From positions 26,365 through 90,364 of the forward strand of contig CAYXXU010000002.1 of assembly GCA_964469155.1 (NCBI GenBank): a stretch of DNA of 64,000 nucleotides. Direction: 5' to 3'. Shown in pieces: positions 1,282 through 63,758 of the stretch; the stretch's first letter is position 1, and each line of letters begins with the position of its first letter. Origin of the DNA: an uncultured Bacteroidales bacterium. GTDB taxonomy: Bacteria > Bacteroidota > Bacteroidia > Bacteroidales > CAIWKO01. The notes below the pieces were generated by a model. That model was not told where the DNA came from and did no database searches. It saw only the letters and a list, made by a program, of their open reading frames with translations. The position numbers and the translations under genes were made by a program.

Positions 1282-1347
1282 GATGGATCGCAACCCTGAA
1301 TGGTTGTATGCAAACCCTTGACGGATGATGCATTTCCCTAGCGTTTC
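1282..1347 (-). repeat. Solo (2-unit) copy of the 21-bp repeat element that is expanded at 51088-51297
   Basis: The reverse complement of 1290-1333 is identical over 44 nt to 51079-51122 (atgcatcatccgtcaagggtttgcatacaaccattcagggttgc). A further ~14 nt of the head are similar. The copy lies between convergent genes. Confidence 0.8.
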
Positions 1348-1406
1348 CCAGCCCATCCGTCCGGTCATGGGAAGTGGTAACGGGCTATTACTCCTTAAAT
1401 CAAGAT

Positions 1407-2171
1407 TTATTTGAACTCTAAAGGATTATGAGCTAAATGACATTCTACACAATTCATTCCATCGTTATGCTCTTTCAAATCGATCTGCTTAATTTTACCG
1501 GAAGGTTTAGCTGTGGCGTGACATTTTCCGCAAGATTCGCGGCTTTGAGGTTTATTTATATTTTTTGGTGATGGAGACAGCACATGTTCGGTACCTTGTC
1601 CGTGGCAACTCTGGCAGCCAATAGATTTATGACTTCCCTGCAACCTGGTTTTATTAATATTCTGATGACAAATGGTGCAGGTTTCGCCCGACACTTGTTT
1701 GGTGTCGCCAAATTTTGAAATGGCTGCAGTCATTAAGGGTGAGTGCGGATTATGGCAGGTGATGCAATAAGTACTGTTTGGGTTATGTTTCAACGAATCT
1801 ATCTGTTTTTTTGGTCTTGATGAGGCTACATTGCTAATATCATGACATTTTAAGCAAAACGCTTTAGAGGAATTTGTATTCAGTACAAATTTTTTAGGAT
1901 TGCGTGTATGCTTAAAAGCCGGACCATGACACATTTGACAACTGAGCGTGGCGTGAGTGCCCGTTATTTTAATGGAATCAATTTTAATGTGACATTTTTT
2001 ACACCAAACGGCCTCAATATTATCCGGGCCCATATCCTGTTCAGATGTAACTGCAGGCTGTTGATTATTGTTTTCCGGTAAATGATTCGGCTTTAACAGG
2101 TAAAATAATACTGCTCCTATGCATAAAATTACCAGAAGGGTGGTTAAAATTATTTTTATTTTTTTTGACAT
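1407..2171 (-). CDS. Membrane-anchored octaheme c-type cytochrome
   Basis: 254 aa with an N-terminal hydrophobic anchor (ILTTLLVILCIGAVLFYLL). Eight CxxCH haem-binding motifs: CKKCH, CQMCH, CLKCH, CITCH, CTICH, CQSCH, CGKCH, CVECH. Confidence 0.85.
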   Translation of the reverse strand: MSKKIKIILTTLLVILCIGAVLFYLLKPNHLPENNNQQPAVTSEQDMGPDNIEAVWCKKCHIKIDSIKITGTHATLSCQMCHGPAFKHTRNPKKFVLNTNSSKAFCLKCHDISNVASSRPKKQIDSLKHNPNSTYCITCHNPHSPLMTAAISKFGDTKQVSGETCTICHQNINKTRLQGSHKSIGCQSCHGQGTEHVLSPSPKNINKPQSRESCGKCHATAKPSGKIKQIDLKEHNDGMNCVECHLAHNPLEFK

Positions 2172-3980: not shown

Positions 3981-5195
3981 CTACAAAGCTCCTTCGTCGT
4001 AAGCCTTTTCGCCGTGTTGGGAATAATCCAGCCCTATAATTTCGGAATCTTTTGAAACTCTGACCGGAGTGATCAGGTTTATTAATATCAGCATAATATA
4101 AGTAAAGATGAAAGCATAGGCTGAAGCAAGCACAACTGCTATGGTTTCTTTCATGAAGAAATTTGAACCGCCAAACAGAATTCCATCGGCTCCGGCCGGA
4201 TTAATAGCCTTTGATGCGAACACACCGAGCAGTATGCATCCTAAAAATCCACCCACACCGTGCACTCCCCAAACATCGAGGGCATCGTCCCATTTCCATT
4301 TATTTTTGAATTGAACGGCCAGATAGCATACACCTCCTGCTGCGATACCAACCAGTGGTGAGGCCCACAAAGGTATGAAACCCGCGCAGGGAGTTATGGT
4401 CGCTAATCCTGCAATGGATCCGGTAAGCAAACCAATGAATTTTGGTTTCTTCTGGTGTATCCATTCGATAATAACCCAGGTGACCGTTGCAAAAGATGCT
4501 GCAATATCGGTATTAATAAAGGCCAATGAAGTAATATGGTCTACAGCGACTTCGCTACCGGCATTGAAACCATACCATCCGAACCATAAAAGACCGCTTC
4601 CGATGGCTACTAAAGGAATACTATTGGGAGTATTGTTTTTTTCTACACGGGCACCCACATAAAATACTGAGGCCAGCGCTGCAAAACCTGCCGTTGCATG
4701 AACAACGATACCACCTGCAAAATCGATAACACCCCATTCGGCTAACAGACCACCGCCCCATATCATGTGGACAAACGGATAGTAAACCAGTATCTGCCAG
4801 AAAGTAAGGAAGATCATGTAAGCTTTGAAATTAACGCGGTTAGCGAACGCTCCGGTTATCAAAGCAGGGGTGATGATGGCAAACATCATCTGGTAAGCAA
4901 TAAAAACGAATTCAGGAATTTTTCCGTTGGTATACATGGAATCCATGCCGACTCCGTAAAGAAATGCTTTATCAAAGTTTCCAATGATACCTCCTGCACC
5001 GCCACTGAAACACAAAGAATATCCGAAGATCACCCACAAAACCGTTGTCCATCCCAGCGAAGCAAAACTTTGAATCATAATACCAAGAATGTTTCTCTTG
5101 GTCGCCAGGCCTCCGTAAAAGAACGCGAGTCCGGGCGTCATTAACATAACCAGGCTGCATGCAAGCAGCATAAAACCTGTTGAACCAGTATCCAT
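3981..5195 (-). CDS. amtB: Ammonium transporter, Amt family
   Basis: 404 aa. Canonical Amt motifs are present: LMTPGLAFFYGGL near the N-terminus and IDFAGGIVVHATAGF. Confidence 0.93.
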   Translation of the reverse strand: MDTGSTGFMLLACSLVMLMTPGLAFFYGGLATKRNILGIMIQSFASLGWTTVLWVIFGYSLCFSGGAGGIIGNFDKAFLYGVGMDSMYTNGKIPEFVFIAYQMMFAIITPALITGAFANRVNFKAYMIFLTFWQILVYYPFVHMIWGGGLLAEWGVIDFAGGIVVHATAGFAALASVFYVGARVEKNNTPNSIPLVAIGSGLLWFGWYGFNAGSEVAVDHITSLAFINTDIAASFATVTWVIIEWIHQKKPKFIGLLTGSIAGLATITPCAGFIPLWASPLVGIAAGGVCYLAVQFKNKWKWDDALDVWGVHGVGGFLGCILLGVFASKAINPAGADGILFGGSNFFMKETIAVVLASAYAFIFTYIMLILINLITPVRVSKDSEIIGLDYSQHGEKAYDEGAL

Positions 5196-6951: not shown

Positions 6952-7584
6952 TGCCCTGAAAGGGCTTAAGCAATAGCATAGGACAACGTCCTATGCTATT
7001 TAAGAATGAAGAATCTTCGCCCTGTAAGGGCATCAGCCTAATCCCATACATATCTCTCATCATATTCGACGTTGTATTTCTTAAGAAAAGCCCTGAATTC
7101 TTCCTGAAAACTCTTGATTTTATGATGTTTGTATTGGTTAATAATATAATCAACGACTTTATCTGTTTCAGCAGGATTAACTGAAAAGATTCCATATCCG
7201 TCCTGCCAATAAAACTGAGAATATTTTTCGTCTTTCGTTTTTATCCATTTGGATGATTGTTTTTTTATTTCTTCTACCAATTTCATCTGTGCTACTTTAC
7301 GTGATAAAAGGTACAAAATGTGAACATGATCTTTATGTCCTCCAATTCTAACAGGATTACATTCCAATCCTTTACAAATGCCCCCCATATATTCATACAA
7401 TGAGTATCCAATGTTTTCATCGATGAGGGGTTTCCTGCTTTTTGTACTGAACGTTATGTGAACATAAACCTTTGATAATGATTGTGACATTTTTTTTTGC
7501 TTTCGCCCTTACAGGGCTTATAAATATCATTTACTATGGCTCAAAGGTCGATGCCCTTTGCTTCTGCTACTGCCCTTACAGGGC
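6952..7584 (-). mobile_element. RAYT gene with flanking REP-like hairpins
   Basis: There are four copies of a 13-nt hairpin. gccctgaaagggc (6952-6964) and gccctgtaagggc (7018-7030) lie 3' of the gene. The reverse-complement form gcccttacagggc (7505-7517 and 7572-7584) lies 5' of it. A perfect 13-bp-stem hairpin is at 6971-6999 (aatagcataggac-aac-gtcctatgctatt). Confidence 0.75.
7038..7490 (-). CDS. IS200/IS605-like Y1 (HUH) transposase, RAYT type
   Basis: 150 aa. HUH motif in KDHVHILY, catalytic Tyr context WQDGYGIFSV, and an N-terminus SKVYVHITFSTKSRKP typical of Y1_Tnp proteins. Confidence 0.88.
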   Translation of the reverse strand: MSQSLSKVYVHITFSTKSRKPLIDENIGYSLYEYMGGICKGLECNPVRIGGHKDHVHILYLLSRKVAQMKLVEEIKKQSSKWIKTKDEKYSQFYWQDGYGIFSVNPAETDKVVDYIINQYKHHKIKSFQEEFRAFLKKYNVEYDERYVWD

Positions 7585-9698: not shown

Positions 9699-10700
9699 AT
9701 GTCAATTAACAAAAAAGCCCTGATACGGTATTATACCATTGACAGATGCCTTAATAATCCGGGAAGGAAATACTTTGTAGAAGATCTTTTAGAGGCAGTA
9801 AATTTTGCTTTAGAGGAAGAGGGTATAAAGGAAGGCATTAAACGCCGGCAATTGTTTGATGATCTGAATTTCATGGAGCTGAACTGGAGTGCGCCCATTG
9901 AAAGATATCCTGATGGCAAAAGAAAGTTTTACAGGTACGAAGATTTAAATTTTTCCATTAACAATCAGCCACTGAATCAGGCTGAAATAAATAAACTTAA
10001 AGATGCTATTGCAATAATTGCCCGATTTAAGGGAATGCCACAGTTTACCTGGGTAGAAGAAATTCTAACAAAGATTAATTATGGTTTAGGAGTTAATGGC
10101 CCTTCACAGGCAATCATCAGTTTTGATAGCAACGAGTATTTGAAAGGAATTGAACATTTGGGAACCCTTTTCGATGCAATAATTTATAAAAAAGTGCTTA
10201 ACATTGACTACCAACCCTACAATACCGAAAAGCCTTTAACATTATCCCTTCATCCGTATTTCTTGAAACAATATAATAATCGCTGGTTTTTGTTTGGGTT
10301 GAACGATGAGTATAATAAGATTACAAATTTAGCTCTGGATAGAATCCAAAGTATTCAGGAGATGAAAGGTAAATACAATGACGAACAAATGCCTGACTTT
10401 AATGAATATTTCGAAGACATAATTGGTGTTACCAAACCTGATGATGGAGTGATTGAGAAAATTGAAATTAAGGTTTCTACTTTACGCTCATCCTATGTAA
10501 AGTCAAAACCCATACATGGTTCCCAGAAAAAAATAAAAGAGGATGAAACCGGATATTATTTTTCAATTGAAATAATTCCAAACAAAGAATTTTACCAGCA
10601 GGTCTTATCATTTGGGTCTGATTTGGAGATCATAAGGCCTGATAAAATAAGAGGCATTATTAAAAACATGCTTAATGAGAATCTAAAAAACTATAAATAA
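9699..10700 (+). CDS. WYL-domain transcriptional regulator
   Basis: 333 aa. N-terminal wHTH-like segment (ALIRYYTIDRCLNN...). Central WYL-type motif YNNRWFLFGLND followed by a C-terminal WCX-like region. Confidence 0.8.
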   Translation: MSINKKALIRYYTIDRCLNNPGRKYFVEDLLEAVNFALEEEGIKEGIKRRQLFDDLNFMELNWSAPIERYPDGKRKFYRYEDLNFSINNQPLNQAEINKLKDAIAIIARFKGMPQFTWVEEILTKINYGLGVNGPSQAIISFDSNEYLKGIEHLGTLFDAIIYKKVLNIDYQPYNTEKPLTLSLHPYFLKQYNNRWFLFGLNDEYNKITNLALDRIQSIQEMKGKYNDEQMPDFNEYFEDIIGVTKPDDGVIEKIEIKVSTLRSSYVKSKPIHGSQKKIKEDETGYYFSIEIIPNKEFYQQVLSFGSDLEIIRPDKIRGIIKNMLNENLKNYK

Positions 10701-10766
10701 TTATGCTGTGCAGGTTGAGTGCACAGTTGCTGTTTTACTTTGCATCATCAAAAAAATAGAAGTATT

Positions 10767-12305
10767 ATGATAAATAAATTTAGCATCGAAAATTTTAAGG
10801 TTTTTAATGAGAAAACAGAATTTGAGTTTGCCCCAATAACCATATTGACCGGACCTAATAATTCAGGAAAAAGTTCGTTGACTAAAAGTGTAGCAGCATT
10901 ACTCAATTCGCAAAAAGATGATGTTTTCAAGGGAATTGATTTGCATTCTCCTATTATACCACTTGGAGATTTTAAATCAATAAAAAACAGAGAAAATCCT
11001 GATTCTCATATAAAAATGACATTACAATTGTCTGATAATGATCCTTGGGAATTTCGTTTTTATTATTGTTGTAGTTATCGTGTGCCTTTTTGGGGAGATA
11101 TTACTGAATTGGATATATATGCAGAATTGGATAAATTAGAAATTACCCAAGAGGGTATGGTTTTATTAGAATTTGAGAATACGATAGGGGATGGTCGATT
11201 ATTTTATACTAATATAAATTTTGATAATTCTTTGGAATACTTTAGAAAAAAAGGATGTCCTAATGCAAACAAATTATACAAATTAATCCAAAAACATGAG
11301 ATAAAAATTAAGCTGCCAGGTTGCGAGTTCGATCGAACTAAAACCAAGGGGTTTGTCACTCATTTTACAGATCGGGTTATTGAACATTTATTAAGCTATG
11401 ATCCTGAACCAAAGTCTAAAAAAGTCAAATGCGAAATAGATAAGACAGTATTTTCACAATTTGTTGAACCCTACCAGAACAAAATTAATAATCAAAAGGA
11501 TTATGATCAAATTATCTCTTCAATGGAGAAATTGTATCGTAAAACTATGAAAATTGCTGGTAAATGTATAGAGGATATCCGTTATAATGCAAATGAATTA
11601 AGATATTTACCAATAAACAGGGGCAGTACGAAAAGAAACTTTAACTTCAATTCAGATGAGACCTTAATTGAGAGAATAATTTATTATTTATCTATTTCTT
11701 CTGCTTCAGAAAATTGCAAATTAAATATTTCAGAAATCTTTAATGGCACTAAAAATAAGTTTAATGAAAAGTGGCTTGATTATTTTTTAATCGGGAAAGA
11801 AATTATTATTAAACAAACTGATTCGCCAAATTATAATATATTTATAAAAAATTATAAAGATGAATTGACGCCAATATTTGATGTAGGGCATGGATTGGCG
11901 GGGCTTATTACTTTATTATTTGGGCTTCGGGAATTGGAATTTGGTGGTTTTTGTATAATTGAAGAACCGGAAACCAATTTGCATCCTGCATTCCAATCAA
12001 AACTTGCAGATTTGTTTACTGCTGTTACAAAGAAAATAAAACACCAACTATTGATAGAAACACATAGCGAGTATCTTATCCGTAAGTTTCAGTATTTGGT
12101 TGCGCAAGGAGAAATGAAACCGGAAGAAATTGTGATTTATTATTTTAATGACCCCAGCAATATTCCGGAAGGGGAAGAACATGTGAAGAAGATTATGATA
12201 GAAAAGGATGGAAGTCTTTCTGATAATTTTGGGGCAGGTTTTTTTGATGAAGCCACTAACTTAAAATTTGATTTACTTAAACAAAAAAGGCCTAATAATA
12301 ATTAA
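10767..12305 (+). CDS. ABC/OLD-type ATPase (AAA_21-like, DUF3696-like tail)
   Basis: The start is taken at MINKFSIENFKVF (an in-frame ATG at 10719 is less likely). Walker A GPNNSGKSS lies at residues ~30-38. After a long insert come Walker B/D-loop CIIEEPETNLHP and H-loop IETHSEYLIRKFQ. The tail is VIYYF...DGSLSDNFGAGFFDEA. Confidence 0.85.
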   Translation: MINKFSIENFKVFNEKTEFEFAPITILTGPNNSGKSSLTKSVAALLNSQKDDVFKGIDLHSPIIPLGDFKSIKNRENPDSHIKMTLQLSDNDPWEFRFYYCCSYRVPFWGDITELDIYAELDKLEITQEGMVLLEFENTIGDGRLFYTNINFDNSLEYFRKKGCPNANKLYKLIQKHEIKIKLPGCEFDRTKTKGFVTHFTDRVIEHLLSYDPEPKSKKVKCEIDKTVFSQFVEPYQNKINNQKDYDQIISSMEKLYRKTMKIAGKCIEDIRYNANELRYLPINRGSTKRNFNFNSDETLIERIIYYLSISSASENCKLNISEIFNGTKNKFNEKWLDYFLIGKEIIIKQTDSPNYNIFIKNYKDELTPIFDVGHGLAGLITLLFGLRELEFGGFCIIEEPETNLHPAFQSKLADLFTAVTKKIKHQLLIETHSEYLIRKFQYLVAQGEMKPEEIVIYYFNDPSNIPEGEEHVKKIMIEKDGSLSDNFGAGFFDEATNLKFDLLKQKRPNNN

Positions 12306-12313
12306 GTTCTACT

Positions 12314-13330
12314 ATGCTCGACATTATTTTAGATAAAGACTTTCTAACGGCTTTCCCTGTTGGCTCGGATAATATTTATTGCCTTGATTTTATTAAGTTT
12401 TTAAAAAAGATCAGGAAATACAGGCTTATCACGAATTTTTCTTCGGTTAATGAGATGAAAATGTCTGCTTGCTTGCCCTTAATTGAATATTTAATTGACG
12501 GCAAGCCACCAGAAATTATTAAATTCTGTGAAATTGACAAGTATATAAATGATGAGGTTATTAATGGAATTGACAAAACATATCCGTTTAAACTTTTTTT
12601 AGTCGAGATGGATTATTCACAACAACGTATTGATTATGGGTTTGAATTTATTAATAGTTCAAATTTACCAGAGCGATGGAAAATATATTACAGTGAAAGA
12701 GAGGATAAAAAGCGTAAAGTAACAAATAGTGAAATAGATGAAATCGTAAAATTTGATTCCTGGAGCAAGTTAAAAGAATACGATCATCCATTTAATAGTC
12801 TTATTATTTTTGATCTATATTTACTTGGCGATAAAGATGGACAAAAAATCAATGATAATCTGTTCCCTTTATTAGAAAATCTTTTAGAGGGGAAAAATCT
12901 TAAAAGTGAATTGCATATTACTATAATTACTGAATATTTTAAAGATAAAATAGAATTAATACATAATCGTATTTCAGAATTTGTTAGTAAAATTAATGGC
13001 GTTAAGAAATTCAATCTTAACATTATCAAGCATGATAAAAGGTTTTATCCAAGAAATTTTCAAGATCTAAAATTCAGAAGGATCTATACGAATTATTTGG
13101 TTATTGAAGAGGAGAAAGGGTTTAATTGTTTTAAGAAAAAAAATGAAACAGGTCTCATTCATAATATTGGGTTTAGCTACATAACTGATCCATTTACTAA
13201 TTGCACACTAAAAACAGAAATTGATCTTATAAAAAGATATGTTGAAAAGGTACAAAATAGGCCTGTTTCACAATATCTTAGTGAAGAAATTAATTTTTTT
13301 AATAATAAAAACAATCGTCTTTTAAATTAA
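12314..13330 (+). CDS. Orphan 338-aa partner protein of the ATPase (function unknown)
   Basis: It starts 8 nt after the ATPase stop on the same strand. There is no signal peptide or TM segment. Only weak motif resemblances were seen (LFLVEMD ... LLGDKDG; KHDKRF...RRIYTNY). Confidence 0.7.
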   Translation: MLDIILDKDFLTAFPVGSDNIYCLDFIKFLKKIRKYRLITNFSSVNEMKMSACLPLIEYLIDGKPPEIIKFCEIDKYINDEVINGIDKTYPFKLFLVEMDYSQQRIDYGFEFINSSNLPERWKIYYSEREDKKRKVTNSEIDEIVKFDSWSKLKEYDHPFNSLIIFDLYLLGDKDGQKINDNLFPLLENLLEGKNLKSELHITIITEYFKDKIELIHNRISEFVSKINGVKKFNLNIIKHDKRFYPRNFQDLKFRRIYTNYLVIEEEKGFNCFKKKNETGLIHNIGFSYITDPFTNCTLKTEIDLIKRYVEKVQNRPVSQYLSEEINFFNNKNNRLLN

Positions 13331-13835: not shown

Positions 13836-14118
13836 GTGTGAAATTTTTCTGCTCAGTTGAGGAAATGTCCTGCATAGTTGCAAGAATTTTCTACTGAGAT
13901 GCAGTAATGTTTTACTGCGTTGCAAGAATTTGCTGCTCAGTTGCAAGAATTTACTGCTCAGTTGCAAGAATGTACTGCACAGTTGCAAGAATGTACTGCT
14001 CAGTTGCAAGAATGTACTGCTCAGTTGTAAGAATTTACTGCTCAGTTGCAAGAATTTACTGCTCAGTTGTAAGAATTTTCTGCTCAGTTGTAAGAATTTA
14101 CTGCTCAGTTGCAAGAAT
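13836..14118. repeat. 21-bp tandem array A (about 13.5 units)
   Basis: Units are in exact 21-nt register from 13836. Consensus is ttgcaagaatttactgctcag. The first four units are degenerate and the central ones near-identical. All reading frames are open across it. Confidence 0.95.
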
Positions 14119-24411: not shown

Positions 24412-24524
24412 GGGCGCCCCCTCCTGCGTCGGGCCGGGCTATACACTACAAGTCCTCATTCCGCTGCGCTCCATTCCGGGCTTTCCGTTCCTATCCCTGG
24501 CGCGGGGGGCAAGCAGCCGTCCTC
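24412..24524. other. Isolated GC-rich intergenic element
   Basis: About 110 nt of GC-rich sequence (gggcgccccctcctgcgtcgggccgggc...ccctggcgcggggggcaagcagccgtcc) embedded in AT-rich spacer. The ends are complementary: gccccc at 24416-24421 with gggggc at 24505-24510. Confidence 0.5.
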
Positions 24525-27241: not shown

Positions 27242-27544
27242 TTAACAAAATGGCCATAATGGGCATAGGCTAAATCTAGCATCTGAAAAAGTTTTTGAAT
27301 CTAGGCTTTCAGTCAGACTTCTTTTTATTCCTTCTTTTGCCATAGCATCAATTAATTTTACTAAATTAATTTCAGCAAGACTTTTTCTATTGGCATCGGC
27401 TAAATCTGAATCACTCATTTTATCAACTCCACTATCAATAAATGCCTTTAAATTGATTGAAGTTAAAGAATTGAAATTAAAATTTTGTTGTTTAATCCTT
27501 TTTTCAGCAGCATCATAGAGATGTTTTTTAAAAATTTCTTTCAT
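27242..27544 (-). CDS. Hypothetical 100-aa protein ending in CPLWPFC
   Basis: The gap to the downstream membrane-protein gene is 17 nt. It is predicted helical, with no recognisable family. Confidence 0.55.
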   Translation of the reverse strand: MKEIFKKHLYDAAEKRIKQQNFNFNSLTSINLKAFIDSGVDKMSDSDLADANRKSLAEINLVKLIDAMAKEGIKRSLTESLDSKTFSDARFSLCPLWPFC

Positions 27545-27998: not shown

Positions 27999-28757
27999 CT
28001 ACTTCTTCGGCGTTGTAAACTTTATCTTTGCTGCAGCATGAAATTCCACACTATCTCCTCCAAATATCGATTTAAATGAATTACGTATTTTACTGGCCAA
28101 TTCATTACCTCCCTTGTCAACTTCATACATAGATTTATTTCTTGCATTTCTTTTAACATCCATCACAGGCTTCTGCAAATTCACATCATCGTTTTTCTTT
28201 TTCAGGTCTATCAGCCAAAGTTTTAAATTCGCTACTTTCAGCACATCAATTTGTGTAGTATAATTTGGCTCATTTTCCAACATACCTATCAACTCACCTA
28301 AATGCCCCAGTTTATCATCTATTCCTGTCTGAGCTGCCGATATTTGTTCTATACTATCTTCAGTCGGAACACCTTCTGGCACTCCTGGCTCTGCAACTAA
28401 TGTTTTTAATTTAGGGGTAGCCCTCACACCTTGAATATTCTTAACTCTCGACTTTACGTCTGCTTTAAATTCAGGAGTAACATTACAAGCCTGAACTTCA
28501 TTATTTACTCTTGTCAACAGCGGATTCACAGCCTTCATGGCATTTCCTCTGAAATTTACCAGGGCAGCCCACTTCACTGCCTCATCAAAGAATTTTCCAA
28601 TCGCTGCATCTATTTCATCATGCTTCACTAAAATATTGGCAGCAGTCAAACTGCTGTCTGCAGGTGTCCAGGCTGCTCCTTGAGCCAATATCATTCCATA
28701 AAGCTTAAATAATCCTTCACAATTCTGTAAATAACCTGTTTGATAAATTTTTCCCAT
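27999..28757 (-). CDS. Hypothetical protein, paralogue of 28861-29607
   Basis: 252 aa. It shares length and a central block (...AAQTGIDDKLGHLGELIGMLENEPNYTTQIDVLKVANLKLWL...) with the upstream gene (...SQAGFVNKVSNLEVLVKLYTNDGNYATNEDILKLTSLATLI...). Confidence 0.7.
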   Translation of the reverse strand: MGKIYQTGYLQNCEGLFKLYGMILAQGAAWTPADSSLTAANILVKHDEIDAAIGKFFDEAVKWAALVNFRGNAMKAVNPLLTRVNNEVQACNVTPEFKADVKSRVKNIQGVRATPKLKTLVAEPGVPEGVPTEDSIEQISAAQTGIDDKLGHLGELIGMLENEPNYTTQIDVLKVANLKLWLIDLKKKNDDVNLQKPVMDVKRNARNKSMYEVDKGGNELASKIRNSFKSIFGGDSVEFHAAAKIKFTTPKK

Positions 28758-28794: not shown

Positions 28795-28864
28795 TTTGAA
28801 CTTTAAACTTTAAACTTTAAACTTTGAACTCCAAACTCCGAACTCCACACTCCAAACTTCCTAC
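28795..28864. repeat. 7-nt-period 'morphing' tandem tract (10 units)
   Basis: tttgaac tttaaac tttaaac tttaaac tttgaac tccaaac tccgaac tccacac tccaaac ttcctac. The last unit overlaps the stop codon of the upstream gene. Confidence 0.9.
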
Positions 28865-29607
28865 AGCGTTTCCTGCGCCTTCTTCATTCTCATAATTCTC
28901 TTCATCGGAACTCCAACAATATATTTCGCTTCTGTCGATCTCGCTCCGTAAACGGATTTCACATATTCTTTACAGGCCAGCGAAATATCAATAATCCCGT
29001 TTTCTTCTTCGTACAAAGCATAATTTCTCAACTGTCTTTTCTTTATCGTTTCCGAATTCGATATTTCTACAGCCTTATTGGCATTTTTCAAATTTGCAAT
29101 TAAGGTTGCCAGGCTCGTTAGTTTCAAAATATCCTCATTAGTCGCATAATTTCCGTCATTCGTATACAACTTCACCAAAACCTCCAGATTGCTAACCTTA
29201 TTCACAAAACCAGCCTGACTTTGACTCACATGATTCGGATCCGGCAATCCGTTTTCCATTGTCTTTATTTTTTTTACTTTCCCTCTGATTTTATTAACTA
29301 AACTTTTTGCATCTTTTATCGCATTCTTGCTTGCCTTGGAAGCTTTAAAAGCGCTAATGGTTCTGCTAACAATCAAACTCATTTGCTTAAACAAAACCTC
29401 CCTCGTATTAATCAAGGTCCTGGTAGCCTCTAAGCTATTCACAAAATCACTTTGTAAGGTAGTAACAGCATTAAATTGATCTGTCATTTTCGCCAAAGTA
29501 ATTTCTAACAATATTGGATTATAATTCGTCCCGAATTCTCCGCATCGGGTTATAATGATAAAGTAATTTGCTATCGTATTTTCTATTGTATTTTCTGTTG
29601 ATCCCAT
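28861..29607 (-). CDS. Hypothetical protein, paralogue of 27999-28757
   Basis: 248 aa and first gene of the minus-strand cassette. A -7 box lies 22 nt upstream. Confidence 0.7.
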   Translation of the reverse strand: MGSTENTIENTIANYFIIITRCGEFGTNYNPILLEITLAKMTDQFNAVTTLQSDFVNSLEATRTLINTREVLFKQMSLIVSRTISAFKASKASKNAIKDAKSLVNKIRGKVKKIKTMENGLPDPNHVSQSQAGFVNKVSNLEVLVKLYTNDGNYATNEDILKLTSLATLIANLKNANKAVEISNSETIKKRQLRNYALYEEENGIIDISLACKEYVKSVYGARSTEAKYIVGVPMKRIMRMKKAQETL

Positions 29608-30085: not shown

Positions 30086-30400
30086 GTGGGTTGTGATATG
30101 CTTCTTGCGGAGTGGAATATGCCATTAGCGGAGTGGAATACGCTTCTTGCGGAGTGGAATTCGCCCTTTGCGGGGTGGAATTCTCCCTTTGCGGGGTGGA
30201 ATTCTCCCTTTGCGGAGTAGAATTCTCCCTTTGCGGAGTGGAATTCGTCATTTGCGGAATGGAATTTTCCATTTGCGGAATGGAATATGTTCCTTGCGGA
30301 GTGGTATATTCCATTTGCGGAGTGGAATATGTCTCTTGCGGGCTCTGTTTTACCTCTTGCGGGTTCGCTTTTATCTTTTTCCGCTTAGGTTACACCTTTT
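30086..30400. repeat. 21-bp tandem array B (about 15 units)
   Basis: Units are in exact register from 30086. Consensus is gcggagtggaattctcccttt. The terminal units are degenerate. The array begins about 40 nt downstream of the SUI1 stop (minus strand). Confidence 0.95.
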
Positions 30401-30440: not shown

Positions 30441-30782
30441 TTATCCCCCTGCCTTCTTGGCTTTATAACCTTTTTCCAGCAATATTTGCAATATCTTATC
30501 CCGCCAATCCCCCTGTACAATAATCTCCCCATCCTTAGCCGAACCGCCCGTACCGCATTTTGTTTTCAGCAGCCGGCCCAGGGCTTCCAGATCCTCCTGC
30601 TTCCCCACAAAGCCCTTTATTACACAGGCAGTCTTCCCGCCCCGGTGCTTCTTCTCCAAAAATATCCTCAACTCCTGTTGTGGCGGAGGCACGGTTTCAG
30701 TTTCCACCTGGTGTGGATCGGTATAATTAAAATCGGGATTCGTCGAATACACTATCCCGCCGGTATTTTTATTTTTCGCCAT
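30441..30782 (-). CDS. yciH: SUI1/YciH-family translation initiation factor
   Basis: Start taken at MAKNKNTGGIVYSTNPDF. The sequence ...RIFLEKKHRGGKTACVIKGF...KCGTGGSAKDGEIIVQGDWR is canonical SUI1. Confidence 0.88.
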   Translation of the reverse strand: MAKNKNTGGIVYSTNPDFNYTDPHQVETETVPPPQQELRIFLEKKHRGGKTACVIKGFVGKQEDLEALGRLLKTKCGTGGSAKDGEIIVQGDWRDKILQILLEKGYKAKKAGG

Positions 30783-30893
30783 CTCTAATAAGCAATGTAA
30801 GCAATTCAACAATTTAGCAATGCAACAATCTAACAATCCAACATAATACTTAAGGCACTCAAGGCACTTAAGGCACTCAAGGCACTTCTTCCC

Positions 30894-32270
30894 TCAAAGT
30901 TTCCTCACCTTCTTCCAGGTGGCTTTCTCTTGCGGGAAACCAATATCGCTTTCCTTCAGATCCTTGTACCACAACTTCAGTTTAGTGCGAAACGCAACAG
31001 CCCCGTCGCCCGTGTACCATTCTTCTATTTTCGATCTGAAAACCTCAACCGCCAACGCTGTCTTATCAAGCGACCACAACATAAATCCCTTGCTCAGATA
31101 AAGGTTCAGCATTTCATTTTTCGAAGGATTCTTTTGGGCAAGCTTGTCTAAATACAACAAACCCTTTTCGGTAACATCGGGCTGCTGCAGTTTCAGACAA
31201 TAAAAAGTCAGGTGCTGCTGATACCATTCCGGACTTAAGGGTTTATCAGCATAATCTATCTTCTGAAATATCAGCTTCAGGGCATCTGAGCGGCTGCTCC
31301 CGGTCCAGCGCCATTCTATATCGTTTTCGGTAATTCGGTTCGCCAGCAAGGTGATATTGACCCCGGCTGAATCTCTGAAAACAGCGGTCGAACTGTTATT
31401 GATAAAGCCTTCGTAAGCTTCAATGGTATTTTGTTTCGCTGCTACAATGAAATTCACACTATCGGCCTTAAACATTTTGATCTCCTGTATGCGGCTCAGG
31501 GCTCTTTCGGCCAGTACATCGCCCGGAAACTTCTTCACAAAAGCCTGGTAAGCTTCTATGGTGTTGCATTTATTGAAAATATTTTCCCTGGCTGAGGCCA
31601 ACAGGGGTTCGTTCGGGTATCGTTTTTCCAGTTCGTCGTAAGTGTAATAATCTTTGCAGGCAGTAAACAACCGGGTCATCTCTTCATGAATTTGTTCTCT
31701 CTGTATCTGATAGGCCTTATCCACAGTAATTTTATTAAACAAAAAACCATAATAAATATCCACCGGGGCAACACTATCGGGGGCAAAGGAATCCTCCCTA
31801 CCGTGTTTTTCCAGCCACCATCTTAATTTTGCCGGTGTTACATAAGGTTCTATTGAATTTCTCAGCAATTGCACCTGAAGTTCGTTATTGAAAAACGAAC
31901 TGATCTTTAAAAACGAATAATTCTCGCCCATGTCTATATTCAGGTACCTGTCTTCGTTTATAATACTCATGTGGGCATCCACTTTCACATCTTCCAGATC
32001 AAGCTCCACAGCCAAAAAGGTCAGTTGGTAAGTAAAATCATCTTTTTTCGAAATGATCACCGGCAGCGAATTGTAAACATATCCGCCCAACAACTGCATA
32101 TCGACAGCAATATTTTTTTTGCTTAAAGGTTCTTTCGATTTATAACCATATTTTTCAATGGCTTTAAAAAAATCTCTTATTTCTTTTCCGCACGAGCTTG
32201 TCAGTGCAAAAACAATCAGGCTTGCAACCAATATACCCGAAAATCTGAATATTTTCTTGTTTACTACCAT
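30894..32270 (-). CDS. Hypothetical lipoprotein
   Basis: 458 aa. Signal peptide with lipobox LTSSC. No enzymatic motif was recognised. Confidence 0.65.
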   Translation of the reverse strand: MVVNKKIFRFSGILVASLIVFALTSSCGKEIRDFFKAIEKYGYKSKEPLSKKNIAVDMQLLGGYVYNSLPVIISKKDDFTYQLTFLAVELDLEDVKVDAHMSIINEDRYLNIDMGENYSFLKISSFFNNELQVQLLRNSIEPYVTPAKLRWWLEKHGREDSFAPDSVAPVDIYYGFLFNKITVDKAYQIQREQIHEEMTRLFTACKDYYTYDELEKRYPNEPLLASARENIFNKCNTIEAYQAFVKKFPGDVLAERALSRIQEIKMFKADSVNFIVAAKQNTIEAYEGFINNSSTAVFRDSAGVNITLLANRITENDIEWRWTGSSRSDALKLIFQKIDYADKPLSPEWYQQHLTFYCLKLQQPDVTEKGLLYLDKLAQKNPSKNEMLNLYLSKGFMLWSLDKTALAVEVFRSKIEEWYTGDGAVAFRTKLKLWYKDLKESDIGFPQEKATWKKVRKL

Positions 32271-40084: not shown

Positions 40085-41443
40085 ATGAAAATACATTTCA
40101 TTGCCATAGGCGGAAGTGTTATGCACAATATGGCTCTGGCCATGAACAATGCTGGTCATACAGTGAGTGGGTCCGACGACGAAATATTCGAACCTGCCAA
40201 AAGCCGGCTCAGCGCCAAAGGAATTCTGCCCGCAGAAACGGGATGGTTTGCCGAAAAAATTCATACCGGCCTGGATGCCATTATACTCGGGATGCATGCC
40301 CGCGAAGACAATCCCGAACTTATTCGCGCCAAAGAAGTGGGCCTGAAGATTTATTCCTTTCCCGAATACATTTACGAACAATCGCGCAACAAAACCCGCG
40401 TTGTGATTGGTGGCAGCCACGGAAAAACCACCATCACCGCCATGATCATGCACGTGTTGCATACTTTAGGCCGCGATTTCGACTACATGGTAGGGGCACA
40501 GTTGGAAGGTTTCGAAACCATGTTCCGCATTTCCGATGCACCTGTTATTATCCTCGAAGGCGACGAATACCTTACTTCCACCCTCGACCGCCGCCCCAAA
40601 TTCCATCTCTACAAACCCAACATAGCTTTGCTCACCGGTATAGCCTGGGATCACATCAATGTATTTCCCACTTTCGAAATCTATATTGAACAGTTTCGCA
40701 AATTCATTGAACTTATAGAACCCAACGGTAGCCTTATCTATTGCGAAACCGATCCCATTTTGAACGATATTTGTTCCCAAGCCCGTTACGGTATTAAATT
40801 GTTTCCTTACGCCACCCCTCAGCATACTATTAAAAATGGTATCACCACTGTTACATTCGGCGAACTTCATTCCGATATTCAGGTGTTTGGAAAACACAAC
40901 CTGGCCAACCTAAACGGCGCCCGGTTGGTATGCGAAAACCTCGGGATTTCCGCGGCTGAATTTCTCGAAGCCATAAAAACCTTCAAAGGAGCAGCCAAAC
41001 GTCTCGAACTGGTTGGTAAAAATTCCGGCGCTGCTTTTTATAAGGATTTTGCCCATTCGCCCTCCAAACTCAAAGCAAGCCTCGATGCGGTCAGCGAACA
41101 ATTTCCTGAGCGAAAGCTGGTGGCCTGTATGGAACTTCACACGTATAGCAGCCTGAACAGCGATTTCTTACAAGAATATCATGCTGCCATGGATAAGGCC
41201 GATGTCGCTATAGTGTATTACAGCGCTCATGCCCTGGAGATAAAGAAAATGCCTCCTCTTTCGCAGGAATTGATCAAACGGTCATTTGGCCGCAACGACC
41301 TGTTGATATTTACTGATAGGGACCAACTCACCGCTTTTCTGAAAACCCAAACCTGGAAAAATCAAAACCTGCTGATGATGAGTTCGGGCGGGTATGATGG
41401 GTTGGATTTTGCGGGTTTATCGCAGCAGTTGCAAATCAGCTGA
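40085..41443 (+). CDS. mpl: UDP-N-acetylmuramate:L-Ala-gamma-D-Glu-meso-DAP ligase
   Basis: 452 aa. N-terminus MKIHFIAIGGSVMHNMA and ATP site GGSHGKTT, giving Mur ligase architecture. Confidence 0.9.
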   Translation: MKIHFIAIGGSVMHNMALAMNNAGHTVSGSDDEIFEPAKSRLSAKGILPAETGWFAEKIHTGLDAIILGMHAREDNPELIRAKEVGLKIYSFPEYIYEQSRNKTRVVIGGSHGKTTITAMIMHVLHTLGRDFDYMVGAQLEGFETMFRISDAPVIILEGDEYLTSTLDRRPKFHLYKPNIALLTGIAWDHINVFPTFEIYIEQFRKFIELIEPNGSLIYCETDPILNDICSQARYGIKLFPYATPQHTIKNGITTVTFGELHSDIQVFGKHNLANLNGARLVCENLGISAAEFLEAIKTFKGAAKRLELVGKNSGAAFYKDFAHSPSKLKASLDAVSEQFPERKLVACMELHTYSSLNSDFLQEYHAAMDKADVAIVYYSAHALEIKKMPPLSQELIKRSFGRNDLLIFTDRDQLTAFLKTQTWKNQNLLMMSSGGYDGLDFAGLSQQLQIS

Positions 41444-41534: not shown

Positions 41535-41828
41535 CTGTTCAAAGGCACGCTGTTTACATCCAATGACATGCTGTTAACATCCTATAGCACGCTGTTGACA
41601 TCCTATGACACGACGTTAACATCCTATGACACGACGTTAACATCCTATGATACGACGTTAACATCCTATGATACGACGTTAACATCCTATGGCACGACGT
41701 TAACATCCAATGATACGCTGTTAACATCCAATGGCACGCTGTTAACATCCTATGACTCGATGTTAACATCCAATGATACGCTGTTAACATCCAATGATAC
41801 GCTGTTAACATCCAATGGCACGACGTTA
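41535..41828. repeat. 21-bp tandem array C (14 units)
   Basis: Units are in exact register. Consensus is acatcc(t/a)atga(c/t)acg(a/c)cgtta. The first unit (41535-41555) is degenerate. A GTTAAC palindrome sits at every unit junction. Confidence 0.95.
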
Positions 41829-41834
41829 ACAAAA

Positions 41835-41863
41835 AGAGTGCAACCGAAATTGCACTCTTTTTT
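41835..41863. terminator. Bidirectional intrinsic terminator between mpl and the tRNA methyltransferase gene
   Basis: agagtgcaa-ccgaaa-ttgcactct forms a 9-bp stem, flanked by an A-run (41831-41834) and a T-run (41859-41863). Confidence 0.85.
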
Positions 41864-49769: not shown

Positions 49770-51008
49770 GTGATCCATAACAAAAGAAAAATCATTAACG
49801 ACCCGGTGCATGGTTTCATTACCATCCCCAACGATCTGATATTCGATATCATCGAACACCCTTATTTTCAACGCCTGCGCTATATCAAACAGCTTGGGCT
49901 GACCTACCTGGTCTATCCCGGGGCCATTCATACACGCTTTCAGCATGCCCTGGGGGCCATGCACCTGATGTCGCAGGCCGTGGAGATGCTTAAGATAAAA
50001 GATCAGGACATTACGGCAGAGGAACAACAGGGCCTTTTGCTGGCCATTCTGCTGCACGATATCGGTCACGGGCCCTTTTCCCATGCGTTGGAACATGCCC
50101 TGGTGGAAAATATTTCGCACGAAACCCTTTCCAACTATTTTATCGAAAGCCTCAATAAACAGCAAGGGGGAGAGCTTGAGCTGGCCAGGCATATCTTCAC
50201 CGATCAATATCATAAGAAGTTTCTGCATCAGTTGGTTTCCAGCCAACTCGATGTCGACAGGCTCGACTACCTGATGCGCGACAGTTTTTTTACTGGCGTT
50301 TCTGAAGGCGTGATCAGCACCGACCGCATCATCAAAATGCTGAATGTGCATGACGACGAACTGGTGGTCGACAGCAAGGGCATCTATTCTGTCGAAAAAT
50401 TCATTGTGGCCCGCCGCCTGATGTATTGGCAGGTGTATCTCCACAAAACCGTGCTTTCGGCCGAAAACCTGCTGATCCATATCCTGCGCCGGGCCAAATA
50501 CCTGGCCGAACAAGGCGAAGCCATATTTGCCGGGTCTGCTTTGGCAACTTTCCTGAAGAAGTGCTATACCTGTCAGGATTTCGTAGCTAACCCACAATTG
50601 CTCGACATTTTTGCCCAACTCGACGACACTGATATTTTTTATAGCATTAAAATGTGGACGAATTCGGCTGATAAGGTTTTGGCCCTGCTGAGCCGCAACC
50701 TGGTGAACCGCCATCTTCCGAAGATTGAGATACAAAACACTCCGTTCGATGAAGCCTATGTCGATGGCATTATGAAGCGGACCAGAGAAAAATATCAACT
50801 GACCGAAGCCGAAACCGCCTATTTTGTGTTTACCGACGAGGTGGCCAACAATGCCTACAACCCGGCTTTCGATAAAATAGGGATGTTATATCACAACGGC
50901 ACCGTAACCGATATTACCAAAAGCTCCGACCAGATTAATACAGAACTCTTGTCCCGAACCATCAGGAAGTATTTTTTGTGTTATCCGAAGGAGTTGTTGG
51001 AGAGGTAG
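49770..51008 (+). CDS. HD-domain phosphohydrolase (dNTPase-like)
   Basis: 412 aa. HD signature LLHDIGHGPFSH and downstream DVDRLDYLMRD. Confidence 0.88.
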   Translation: MIHNKRKIINDPVHGFITIPNDLIFDIIEHPYFQRLRYIKQLGLTYLVYPGAIHTRFQHALGAMHLMSQAVEMLKIKDQDITAEEQQGLLLAILLHDIGHGPFSHALEHALVENISHETLSNYFIESLNKQQGGELELARHIFTDQYHKKFLHQLVSSQLDVDRLDYLMRDSFFTGVSEGVISTDRIIKMLNVHDDELVVDSKGIYSVEKFIVARRLMYWQVYLHKTVLSAENLLIHILRRAKYLAEQGEAIFAGSALATFLKKCYTCQDFVANPQLLDIFAQLDDTDIFYSIKMWTNSADKVLALLSRNLVNRHLPKIEIQNTPFDEAYVDGIMKRTREKYQLTEAETAYFVFTDEVANNAYNPAFDKIGMLYHNGTVTDITKSSDQINTELLSRTIRKYFLCYPKELLER

Positions 51009-51087
51009 TTAGGGGGATTAGCTGCAGGTGAGCCAAGTGGGACCTCAACTATAGTGAATCTTCTGGAATGCTAGCGAGATGCATCAT

Positions 51088-51297
51088 CCGTCAAGGGTTT
51101 GCATACAACCATTCAGGGTTGCTCCCCAACCGTTCAGGGTTGCTATCCAACCGTTCAGGGTTGCTATCCAACCATTCAGGGTTGCTCCCCAACCATTCAG
51201 GGTTGCTATCCAACCGTTCAGGGTTGCTATCCAACCGTTCAGGGTTGCTATCCAACCATTCAGGGTTGCTCCCCAACCGTTCAAGGTTGCGAATCAA
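51088..51297. repeat. 21-bp tandem array D (10 units)
   Basis: Units are in exact register. Two alternating variants occur: ccattcagggttgctccccaa and ccgttcagggttgctatccaa. Each contains the inverted repeat caacc-n6-ggttg across the unit junction. Confidence 0.95.
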
Positions 51298-54336: not shown

Positions 54337-54337
54337 T

Positions 54338-61044: not shown

Positions 61045-61812
61045 ATGGACAGAAAAAAGAGTTTATTGATTTGGCTCTCGCTGGGATTGAATGTGGCTAT
61101 TATTTTGGTCTTGCTTGTGGCAAAATTTATGGCAGAGAATAGGCTGGAAAAGGTTTCGGGTATGCTGAACCGCCTGGGCGATTCGGAGATAGTGTATATG
61201 GTGCATGTGGAAGATACACTCGACATCGCTACCGCCTTTCTCATTGAGGAGACTGTGCCGGTGAGGGTGAAGATGGATGTGGATTACGACCTGGATTTTA
61301 TAGCCAATATTCCCATAGATCAGCAAATCATGACTCCTATAAACCTGGTGGTGAATCAAAATATTAAGGTCGATACAGGTTTTTTGTTTAAAGAAAAGAT
61401 CGTGGTGCCTTTAAACGAAGTAATACATGTTGACCAGAAGTTTTTGGTTGCGTTGAACGGCGACAGGACCAAAGGCATACGTGTGCCTATTGTAGCCGAT
61501 ATTCCCCTGAAACAAAATATTTCGCTCGATATAAAGAACCCCATCCCGGTGATGGCCGACATCCCCATAAAGATACCCATTTCGCAGATCATTCCGGTAC
61601 AGATCACCATGACCCTGCCCGTTGACCTGAAAATTCCGCTGCATATCCCGGTTAATGCCAAAGCATTGATCACCTTCCCGCAAACTCTGCCCGTAAAGGG
61701 GAGAATACCGCTCAACTTGGATATACCTGTGAAGATACCCCTAAGTGCGACGCCTATTAAGGAAAAGGCAGACAGCATTGCCTTTGAACTGAATCATCTG
61801 TTGAAACCCTGA
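61045..61812 (+). CDS. Membrane-anchored hypothetical protein with I-P-rich short repeats
   Basis: 255 aa. One N-terminal TM segment. The C-terminal half carries reiterated IP(I/V/L)-type motifs (ADIPLKQ, ADIPIKIPISQIIPVQ, KIPLHIPV, RIPLNLDIPVKIPL). Confidence 0.65.
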   Translation: MDRKKSLLIWLSLGLNVAIILVLLVAKFMAENRLEKVSGMLNRLGDSEIVYMVHVEDTLDIATAFLIEETVPVRVKMDVDYDLDFIANIPIDQQIMTPINLVVNQNIKVDTGFLFKEKIVVPLNEVIHVDQKFLVALNGDRTKGIRVPIVADIPLKQNISLDIKNPIPVMADIPIKIPISQIIPVQITMTLPVDLKIPLHIPVNAKALITFPQTLPVKGRIPLNLDIPVKIPLSATPIKEKADSIAFELNHLLKP

Positions 61813-61852: not shown

Positions 61853-62167
61853 GTGACATTCCCTTTAAGGAAGGTGACAATCACTTTAAGGAAAATGACA
61901 TCCCCTTTAAGGAAGGTGGCAATCCCTTTAAGGAAAGTGACATCCCCTTTAAGGAAGGTGACAATCCCTTTAAGGAAAGTGACAATCCCTGTAAGGAATG
62001 TGACAATCCCTTTAAGGAAAGTGATATTCCCTTTAAGAAAGGTGGAAACCCCTGCAAGGAAAGTGACAATCCCTTTAAGGAAGGTGACTTTCCCTATAAG
62101 GAAAGAGATATTCCCTTGAAGGAAGGCGGCATTCCCATAAGGTAGGGTGGAAACTTTGAAGTGGGTA
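61853..62167. repeat. 21-bp tandem array E (about 15 units, 42-bp higher-order period)
   Basis: Units are in exact register. Consensus is gtgacaatccctttaaggaa(a/g). The last base alternates g/a in successive units over most of the array. The last 3 units are degenerate. Confidence 0.95.
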
Positions 62168-62423: not shown

Positions 62424-63758
62424 CTAATATCTCAACCACTTCCACAATTCGCGGTAGCTGATCTTTTTGCCGTACATCAGAATGCCAGTGCGGTAAATTT
62501 TGGCGGCCATCCAGGCAACCCCCAGAAATCCGAGGATGAGCAGACCCATAGACAGCAGCAGTTCAGACAAGGGAACGCCAAAAGGAAGTCTTATCATCAT
62601 GACGATAGGCGAGGTGAGGGGTATGATGGAAAGCCAGAAGGAGATAGGCCCCTGAGGGTCTTCGATGATAGATTGCGCCATGACGAAAGAGAGAATGAGG
62701 GGAATGGTGATGGGAAGCATGAACTGCTGGGTGTCGGCTTCGCTGTCGACCGCCGCACCAATGGCCGCAAACAGGCCTCCATAAATGAGGTAGCCAAAAA
62801 GGAAATAAAAGAAGAACAAAGCTATGATGGCGACAAAATCGAAGCCGGCTATGGATTTCATGACCGCATTGAAGATTTCGCCGCTATCGTCCTGAGGCTT
62901 GGCCTGGGTGGTGTTTTCGGGAAAGAGGGTGTTGTTTTGAGGGGTGAATTCCTGCTGAGTGGAGGTGGTGCTTTTTATAGGTGTTTTCATAATCGAAGCC
63001 TGAAACACGGTGACTATGCCTAATGTGAGCACTATCCAGAGCAGAAACTGGGTTAAGCCCACCAATCCTATTCCGGTGATCTTGCCAACCAGCAATTGAA
63101 AGGGTTTTACCGAAGAAACAATGATCTCGACAATGCGGCTGGTCTTTTCCTCAATAACCCCCCTCATCACCTGCGAACCAAACATAAAAATCGAAAAATA
63201 GATCAATATTCCTCCAAACAATCCAATAAAAGTACTGAGCAAAGGCGAAGCATTTTCGCCGGTCTGAATGTTTTCGGTCTGCAAATTGATGGAGGTTTTG
63301 ATAGATTCGAGGTCTTTTTTATCAATGCCAAACTGATCGTTGAGGGTTTTGTTTTCGAGCACGTATTTCATCTTCTCCTCAATGTAACTGGTAACTCCAA
63401 TACCGGGCTGCTTGTTTGCGTATAGCAGCAAAGCATAGTTGGGTTTGGTGAGGGAAGGTTTGGGAATATAGAGCAGGCATGCGTGTTCTGATTTCTGAAA
63501 ATCCTGTCTGGCGGTAATAATATCGGTGGCGAGATAGCGGAATTGAATGGTTTTGTTGCTGTTGAGTTTTCCGAAATACAGCCCGGTTTCGTCGACCACA
63601 TCGACCGTTTTAACATCTTCGCCCATCTGGGAGACAAAAAAGGGCACAATCATAAGTGATGCCATCAGAATGGGGCCGAGAATGGTCATGATGATGAACG
63701 AACGTTTCTTTACCCTGGAAAGATACTCGCGTTTTATGATAATGAAAGTCTTTTTCAT
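62424..63758 (-). CDS. ABC-2 type transporter permease (NatB-like)
   Basis: 444 aa. An N-terminal TM segment, a large extracytoplasmic loop and then 5-6 C-terminal TM segments. Located immediately downstream of an ABC ATPase gene. Confidence 0.82.
   Translation of the reverse strand: MKKTFIIIKREYLSRVKKRSFIIMTILGPILMASLMIVPFFVSQMGEDVKTVDVVDETGLYFGKLNSNKTIQFRYLATDIITARQDFQKSEHACLLYIPKPSLTKPNYALLLYANKQPGIGVTSYIEEKMKYVLENKTLNDQFGIDKKDLESIKTSINLQTENIQTGENASPLLSTFIGLFGGILIYFSIFMFGSQVMRGVIEEKTSRIVEIIVSSVKPFQLLVGKITGIGLVGLTQFLLWIVLTLGIVTVFQASIMKTPIKSTTSTQQEFTPQNNTLFPENTTQAKPQDDSGEIFNAVMKSIAGFDFVAIIALFFFYFLFGYLIYGGLFAAIGAAVDSEADTQQFMLPITIPLILSFVMAQSIIEDPQGPISFWLSIIPLTSPIVMMIRLPFGVPLSELLLSMGLLILGFLGVAWMAAKIYRTGILMYGKKISYRELWKWLRY

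Follow-up and report, generated by a model that had tools for sequence, protein, structure and literature searches.

Intergenic tandem arrays with a common 21-bp register and unrelated unit sequences in an uncultured Bacteroidales lineage

To our knowledge, the bacterial intergenic repeats described to date (REP, BOX, MIRU, STRR, BrickBuilt and iterons) are defined by sequence. The nearest precedent for one period carried by several sequences is found among heptamer repeats. The STRR heptamers of heterocystous cyanobacteria were reportedly described by Mazel et al. in 1990. TAACTGA heptamer arrays occur in Beggiatoaceae, cyanobacteria and Bacteroidetes (PMC4679880). Like the arrays described here, which lie in a 64-kb stretch of DNA analysed as a whole (the window), STRR and TAACTGA heptamers are intergenic, stand head to tail, show several sequence families at one period per genome, are lineage-restricted and lack a known function. 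However, the unit here is 21 bp long with no 7-nt sub-periodicity, and each array has its own unit, whereas STRR repeats form a few genome-wide families. Moreover, the arrays here follow stop codons, whereas the Beggiatoa heptamers precede start codons.

A second group of relevant elements is modular. The pneumococcal BOX element has the structure boxA-(boxB)n-boxC. BrickBuilt of Porphyromonas gingivalis is a MITE with an internal 23-nt minisatellite, which is always intergenic, lies 49-591 nt from genes and varies in unit number (PMC4596501). BrickBuilt resembles the arrays here in its occurrence in Bacteroidota and in its spacer-less tandem units of ~21-23 nt. BrickBuilt and BOX each form a single family whose many copies agree in unit, leader, tail and inverted ends. 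The five arrays within 64 kb, by contrast, carry unrelated units and do not have a leader, tail or inverted ends in common.

The 22-bp iterons, the 20-bp parC repeats and the 43-bp sopC repeats are plasmid replication or partition repeats. They are direct repeats approximately two helical turns apart, a spacing also found here (21 bp; modelled twist 712-726 degrees), their bound proteins sit on one face, and their sequences are replicon-specific. However, they lie beside rep or par genes in 4-12 copies and are bound by a cognate protein, whereas the present arrays are chromosomal, several unrelated ones lie within 64 kb, and no rep, par or cognate binding-protein gene was found beside them, the flanks being housekeeping genes. 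REP/BIME sequences, which have been proposed to act structurally or topologically, for example by binding gyrase or IHF, are likewise extragenic and cluster at the 3' ends of genes and in convergent intergenic regions, but they are palindromes of alternating orientation from one sequence family. A REP/BIME identity was rejected, since the arrays consist of direct repeats that lack a general dyad and the REPs of the window are confined to the flanks of a RAYT gene.

Outside bacteria, eukaryotic satellite DNA ('library' model), in which unit length is tied to a protein footprint, also keeps its period while sequences turn over between species, and it shows higher-order repeats, homogeneous cores and degenerate edges as the arrays here do. 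The differences are the organism and the scale, which is ~0.3 kb here and kb to Mb there, and we know of no chromatin particle of 21 bp in bacteria. Literature searches found no description of such 21-bp arrays. Family tests and literature searches thus agree with the original prediction that no described class matches, with BOX, BrickBuilt and STRR as partial precedents; what is conserved here is unit length and genomic site, with the sequence free.

Arrays of the 64-kb window

Tandem Repeats Finder (TRF) placed period-21 arrays at five positions of the window (scores 195-343; 9.4-13.6 copies), and no further array of similar length was found by TRF in the 64 kb. The features are as follows.

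1290..1351, minus strand: solo D-family member, consisting of a leader, one degenerate unit and one unit
13836..14118, unstranded: array A, 13.5 units of TTGCAAGAATTTACTGCTCAG; four left units degenerate, right end sharp
30086..30400, unstranded: array B, 15 units of GCGGAGTGGAATTCTCCCTTT; 42/63-bp higher-order blocks
41535..41831, plus strand: array C, 14 units of ACATCCTATGACACGACGTTA; its start lies 91 nt past the stop of the Mur-ligase gene 40085..41443
41831..41862, unstranded: bidirectional intrinsic terminator, a perfect hairpin with 13-nt arms, AAAAAGAGTGCAA/TTGCACTCTTTTT, with an A-run and a T-run
51063..51087, plus strand: D-family leader, CTGGAATGCTAGCGAGATGCATCAT, also present in the solo copy
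51088..51297, plus strand: array D, 10 units of CCGTTCAGGGTTGCTATCCAA; 63-bp higher-order blocks
61853..62167, unstranded: array E, 15 units of GTGACAATCCCTTTAAGGAAA; 42-bp higher-order period, sharp left end and degenerate right end

The individual TRF calls covered 13845-14118 for A (13.0 copies, 85% matches), 30096-30341 and 30333-30373 for B (~15 units in register), 41546-41831 for C (13.6 copies), 51094-51290 for D (9.4 copies) and 61853-62124 for E (13.0 copies). Printed in 21-nt lines from their originally assigned starts, A-E kept a strict head-to-tail 21-nt register. Autocorrelation at lag 21 was 0.74-0.86 in the window arrays, compared with 0.12-0.41 at the other lags from 18 to 24, and no local window within the arrays preferred a lag other than 21. 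The originally predicted five arrays in one strict register are thereby confirmed. In 11 arrays tested (~130 units), there were no register slips, and neighbouring units were mismatched at 7-49% of positions.

The units themselves have nothing in common. The best circular match between A-E consensus units on either strand reached 9-11 of 21 positions, against a shuffled mean of 10.1, which bears out the claim that they are mutually unrelated; an all-against-all circular and gapped comparison likewise found common sequence only at chance level. A decomposition of the 21-mer into three heptamers was rejected (circular autocorrelation at shift 7, 12 units, z = -0.12). As had been noted and as the 21-nt printing showed, a homogeneous core is bordered by degenerate edge units in each array, and 42- or 63-bp higher-order blocks were present in B, D and E. 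Such edges and blocks are expected under slipped-strand or unequal exchange. Array length is narrow, at 170-320 bp. The arrays are not CRISPR arrays, as already stated in the original prediction: the units abut head to tail, the period equals the unit length (21), and there are no unique spacers. No MITE ends were found around the arrays.

The arrays lie shortly after genes. The distance past the stop codon is 40 nt for B (minus strand, after a SUI1 gene), 91 nt for C, 79 nt for D and 40 nt for E, in agreement with the predicted intergenic position ~40-200 nt past a stop. For A, the corresponding 199 nt counts from a doubtful 64-aa ORF, and the nearest solid gene is 505 nt away. Among 14 arrays of the window and its relatives with both flanks known, seven lie between convergent genes, seven between tandem genes and none between divergent genes, and the tandem cases are mostly nearer a 3' end. 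The flanking genes are housekeeping genes (Mur ligase, HD-domain protein, lpxD, SUI1/YciH, ABC-2 permease, Fe/Mn SOD and FTHFS). The context is chromosomal, with FTHFS, DnaJ and GrpE nearby, and several T9SS-tailed proteins are also encoded around the arrays.

Specifically, the degenerate end of array B points toward the SUI1/YciH-like gene 30441..30836 (minus strand), the stop of which is 40 nt away. A degenerate 21-23-bp fossil repeat at 41466-41514 lies ahead of array C, whose distal end abuts the terminator hairpin, with a convergent methyltransferase gene beyond. Because C sits between the Mur-ligase stop and this hairpin, we infer that it would be transcribed as the Mur-ligase 3' UTR. 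Array D begins past the stop of the HD-domain gene 49770..51008, and lpxD lies 355 nt beyond its end. Array E is located between the convergent genes 61045..61812 (plus strand) and 62424..63758 (minus strand). Array A is located inside a 5.4-kb segment (~9.5-14.9 kb) that is missing from the relatives L186 and L188, indicating that period-21 arrays occur in recently acquired DNA too.

The sixth locus of the original prediction, a two-unit solo copy, is present at ~1290-1351 on the minus strand and belongs to the D family. Compared with 51063-51122, it is identical at 57 of 60 aligned bases, covering the 18-25-nt leader, a degenerate first unit and a portion of the second, and its tail resembles the last unit of array D. 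It lies 61 nt past the stop of the cytochrome-c gene 1407..2171 (minus strand). Array D and the solo copy are thus 50 kb apart, in opposite orientation, and both are 60-80 nt past a stop codon. The D family fits the pattern of BrickBuilt and BOX, namely leader, unit and tail repeated across loci, at two loci (51063-51297 and 1290-1351). Because the solo copy has its leader in common with array D, leader-unit-tail modules can apparently be copied between loci. A second copy is known for the D family only, in the 64-kb window and 2.2 Mb of relatives; a search for further D-family copies that used the protein database as a proxy gave no matches. There is no leader, unit or tail common to the A, B, C, D and E families, and no convincing terminal inverted repeats or target-site duplication flank the arrays or the solo copy.

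Relatives, period census and independent assemblies

Activated sludge and digesters are the sources of the closest genomes, MAGs of uncultured 'Bacteroidales' or Bacteroidota whose Mur ligases reach at most 85% identity. In the loci analysed, relatives at 60-88% protein identity carry non-coding 21- or 42-bp arrays (TRF). The relative with 85% Mur-ligase identity, L005, is syntenic with 30.4-51 kb of the window and has arrays at three orthologous sites.

1986-2214 of L005: array at the B site, after the SUI1 gene
11391-11560 of L005: array at the C site, 31 nt past the Mur ligase
20644-20776 of L005: array at the D site, ~30 nt past the HD gene; the contig stops within the array

Additionally, the C site of L085 (80%) is occupied by a 21-bp x 11.8 array, and L091, L013 and L020 have 21-bp arrays at other sites. 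L011 carries a 22-bp array and L012 a 41-bp array (4102-4497, x9.7, 93% matches). L186, from the MAG of L005, has a 42-bp x 6.4 array (18934-19202) 24 nt past the cytochrome-c stop, at the site orthologous to the D-type solo copy of the window. A homologous array (42-bp x 3.6) is found at 10365-10514 of L188, with ~72-94% identity by segment to that of L186, and the genes flanking the two arrays are 83-91% identical. The 42- and 41-bp periods of the relatives are approximately twice 21 bp.

No residual homology was detected between the window arrays and the orthologous arrays of the L005 genome, which ranked like non-orthologous pairs. The solo copy showed no similarity to the L186 unit, and leaders and tails of the Mur-ligase site, aligned across three species, had nothing in common. 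At all four comparable sites, the unit differs from that of the closest relative genome, and the site and the 21/42-bp register are kept, in species with ~73-84% nucleotide identity. Site and register are thus conserved and the unit is not. From the sequences compared, the cytochrome-c site looks like a case of array replacement, not slow drift. At the site orthologous to E in an 87% relative, 7-, 14- and 4/8-bp repeats take the place of the 21-bp array.

Repeat periods were counted for arrays with four or more copies outside long ORFs, in non-redundant loci totalling 2.29 Mb. The sample comprises the 64 kb and loci picked via three marker genes, mostly from short-read assemblies that are prone to breaking at such arrays. 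Non-coding periods were 7 (12 arrays), 8 (four), 10 (three), 11, 15, 20, 21 (13 arrays), 22 and 41. Among arrays of at least 100 bp, the period was exactly 21 in 13 of 20 cases, and three more had periods of 20, 22 and 41. Coding arrays showed the usual multiples of three. Repeat finding thus recovered, within these 2.29 Mb of loci, the over-representation of period 21 that the original prediction implied. The second favoured non-coding period was 7.

Logan short-read contigs of the same species were recovered from several runs by exact-protein look-up. Four Logan assemblies, each from a different sequencing run, matched array E and both of its flanks at 100% identity. The Mur-ligase contigs all end at window position 41627, four units into array C, and the lpxD contigs begin at 51254, two units before the end of array D. 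The arrays are not an assembly artefact; full-length independent confirmation covers E, and the copy numbers of A-D are those of the source contig. An artefact might take the form of k-mer loops produced by a de Bruijn step with k = 21, an idea suggested by the fact that 21 is a common minimum k of metagenome assemblers and that most of the loci come from short-read MAGs. It is hardly credible, given the identity of E in four assemblies, the variant-rich units and higher-order blocks inside long contigs, which are not expected of a k = 21 loop, the recurrence of period 21 in assemblies by different groups and tools, and the breaking of contigs at array edges with 2-4 units read in. Short-read assemblies break at these arrays at many gene ends in this lineage, so the arrays are probably under-reported in MAG collections.

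Structural tests and competing readings

Four-unit tandems of each consensus were folded and compared with shuffled-unit tandems. No consistent RNA or DNA hairpin was found across the units (z from -2.3 to +1.2), so the short dyad said to be frequent in the arrays is not general. Clear self-complementarity was seen only in the units of L005b and L013, and the units of L085 and L091 were almost structureless. No array matched Rfam at the gathering threshold, nothing was found in or beside the arrays at E <= 0.5, and no tRNA or Rfam family overlapped them. Curvature was modelled with a dinucleotide wedge model. In this model, the twist per unit was 712-726 degrees (720 +/- 8), so the unit bends would add coherently, in phase. 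The bend per unit was 9-43 degrees, against a shuffled mean of ~19, and the fraction of shuffles reaching the observed value was spread roughly uniformly from 0.006 to 0.88. Selection of the units for curvature was rejected, as their bend in the wedge model was not above that of shuffled units. Since the units are no more bent than shuffled ones, curvature would come from phasing alone.

Taken together, the arrays very probably form a real, non-coding, lineage-wide class in which site and register are conserved. Both the 7-49% mismatch without a slip and the 21-bp period of new arrays argue for a constrained unit length, imposed by selection or by the array-making mechanism, and a constraint on the 21-bp register itself is probable. 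The original proposal of a shared mechanism or constraint on the period was strengthened by the orthologous sites, the zero slips and the census. The only two sequence-independent properties that mark 21 from neighbouring lengths are that it equals two helical turns and that it is a multiple of 3 and 7. Two helical turns is the only such property that fits 20, 21, 22, 41 and 42. The deviant periods 20, 22 and 41 lie close to whole helical turns, and none is divisible by 3 or 7. However, these deviant periods are equally expected from single-base indels in an inherited 21/42-bp unit, and the favoured period 7, which is not a helical multiple, counts against the helical reading, as do the 7-, 14- and 4/8-bp repeats found in place of array E in the 87% relative.

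With low confidence, we favour a putative register-dependent structural DNA role at transcription-unit ends. As 21 bp corresponds to two B-DNA turns, each unit would show the same face, and small intrinsic bends would sum in one plane. At transcription-unit ends, the arrays may thus serve as sequence-independent structural DNA, for which candidate roles are a loading platform for a nucleoid-associated protein or a barrier to supercoils or transcription; they would be transcribed passively as 3' UTR. The helical-phase structural function taken by itself is a tentative suggestion. The explanation as a whole, namely a lineage-specific minisatellite class with a constrained register and a putative structural DNA role, is given a probability of about 0.35.

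The main rival is a functionless modular element, followed in order by RNA-level, ruler-enzyme, coding and artefact readings. Selfish or neutral elements comparable to BOX and BrickBuilt might have merely inherited their 21-bp length from an ancestral element; a leader-(unit)n-tail module would spread to insertion-tolerant gene 3' ends and expand by slippage, and its units would drift or be replaced. The leader, units and tail that D and the solo copy have in common speak for this, as do the degenerate edges with higher-order blocks, the lack of a common motif, structure or optimised bend, the D-type module at a cytochrome-c site that holds a different 42-bp array in L186 and L188, and the position of A within an acquired island. 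However, A-E share no leader or tail and lack terminal inverted repeats or target duplications, only one family has a second copy in 64 kb and 2.2 Mb of relatives, and the arrays persist at four of four comparable sites at ~73-84% nucleotide identity. The narrow size range and the combination of 7-49% mismatch with zero slips are also hard to square with unconstrained drift, and we regard this rival as possible but doubtful. In a ruler mechanism, 21-bp duplications would be made de novo from local gene-end sequence, either by slippage over a two-turn protein footprint or by a templated repeat-adding enzyme. One period with unrelated sequences, even in the newly acquired DNA around A, would be accounted for, and short 21-23-bp fossil repeats of other sequences lie beside B, C, L005a and L085; moreover, A, B and C are polar, with one end sharp and the other degenerate. 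This polarity is absent in L085, L091 and L013, though, no candidate enzyme is encoded beside any array among the housekeeping flanks, and the sole transposase of the window is RAYT-like with REPs unrelated to the arrays, leaving a ruler improbable.

The RNA-level reading takes the arrays as long 3' UTRs that serve as stability elements, protein sponges or small-RNA precursors. All arrays come after stop codons, C is enclosed by the Mur-ligase stop and a strong terminator hairpin, T-runs follow several arrays, and the heptamer arrays of the lineage likewise begin right past stop codons. Position thus favours the 3'-UTR RNA scaffold of the original prediction, whereas folding and Rfam do not: structure is inconsistent and almost absent from the L085 and L091 units, there is no common motif, and no Rfam match emerged at permissive thresholds. 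RNA also has no obvious reason to favour 21 nt, and for E, which has a gene on either side, orientation relative to the two is ambiguous; this reading is unlikely, if a little less so than a ruler. Small proteins of 7-residue repeats would follow from 21 nt being seven codons, and each array does have at least one largely open frame. In D, an ATG in the conserved leader and a stop just past the array delimit 78 aa of (PFRVAIQ)n. However, the statement that all six frames stay open did not survive inspection: most frames have 1-22 stops, three are open only in D, and B has none that is fully open, so open frames in all six directions do not explain the repeat-derived ORFs. Most 21-mers are expected to have an open frame by chance, the ORF of the solo copy continues into the neighbouring gene with a different C-terminus, no gene was called in array E in four assemblies, and a search of 5.8 billion proteins yielded no homologue of the D ORF. 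A coding role is therefore very improbable.

Conservation of unit length and site, with sequence left free, is characteristic of a constraint that acts either on the geometry of the DNA or on the mechanism generating the arrays. It is conceivable, if unlikely, that the lineage has machinery that actively makes and keeps 21-bp-register arrays at transcription-unit ends, whatever their sequence; candidates for this putative machinery are a DNA-binding protein whose footprint spans two turns and an enzyme that adds or copies repeats. If so, the arrays would represent a bacterial equivalent of satellite DNA, with period, not sequence, carrying function, and they might organise the nucleoid or insulate supercoils between genes. 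If confirmed genome-wide, they would offer a tractable bacterial system for the birth, homogenisation and replacement of tandem arrays, as well as a test of function for helical repeat phasing at gene ends.

Other repeats and elements in the window

Short tandem repeats at gene ends are common in this genome generally. Heptamer (and 14-mer) arrays were found directly past stop codons at 27979-27996, 28793-28858, 54335-54384 and 62398-62421. (GGAGTTT)n follows the paralogous genes 27999..28757 and 28861..29607, both on the minus strand, and a matching heptamer, (AGTTTGG)5.6, is located past the ABC-2 permease stop in an 87% relative (L176, 2394-2483). In L179 (459-627), adjacent (AATAGCC)11 and (TGGCTCA)12 arrays lie upstream of a PadR gene; they are approximately reverse complementary and could form a hairpin of ~80 bp. 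A cluster of 8/16/24-bp and 9/18-bp tandem repeats, including (ACTCAAGGC)4.3, covers 30789-30887, where the 3' end of gene 30894..32270 meets the start of the SUI1 gene.

A gene for a RAYT-like Y1 (IS200-like, PF01797) transposase, 7038..7490 (minus strand), lies within 6953-7584, and in the same place in L186. The REP-like hairpin GCCCTGWAAGGGC occurs at 6953 and 7019 (plus strand) and at 7505 and 7572 (minus strand), which are the only four matches, with 0.11 expected by chance; no REP was found near the 21-bp arrays in the window. A 53-bp stretch with the core TGATTCTTKGTGTTTTGGAGTCTTRGTGGC is shared between 51445-51497 and 62246-62297 (85% identical, same strand), 85-150 bp downstream of D and E. 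It has no third copy in the window, and no other sequence common to the array flanks was found.

The insertion at ~9.5-14.9 kb is defence-island-like and lies between the SOD and histidine-kinase genes. Its genes at 9699-13330 encode a WYL-domain regulator, an AAA_15/AAA_21/DUF3696 ATPase and a 338-aa protein without a Pfam match, and a YgaP-like gene shares the segment with array A. Additionally, a type II restriction-modification pair (24640-26212; N6_N4 DNA methylase and EcoO109I-like endonuclease) is located in a ~6-kb segment (~24.4-30.4 kb) that is missing from the syntenic L005 and has array B at its right edge. Two sub-threshold Rfam matches were also recorded, a DUF805 RNA at 27544-27603 (minus strand; 35 bits, gathering threshold 51, E = 0.012), upstream of 27242..27544, and a Flavo-1 sRNA at 24428-24515 (minus strand; 29 bits, gathering threshold 42, E = 0.044).
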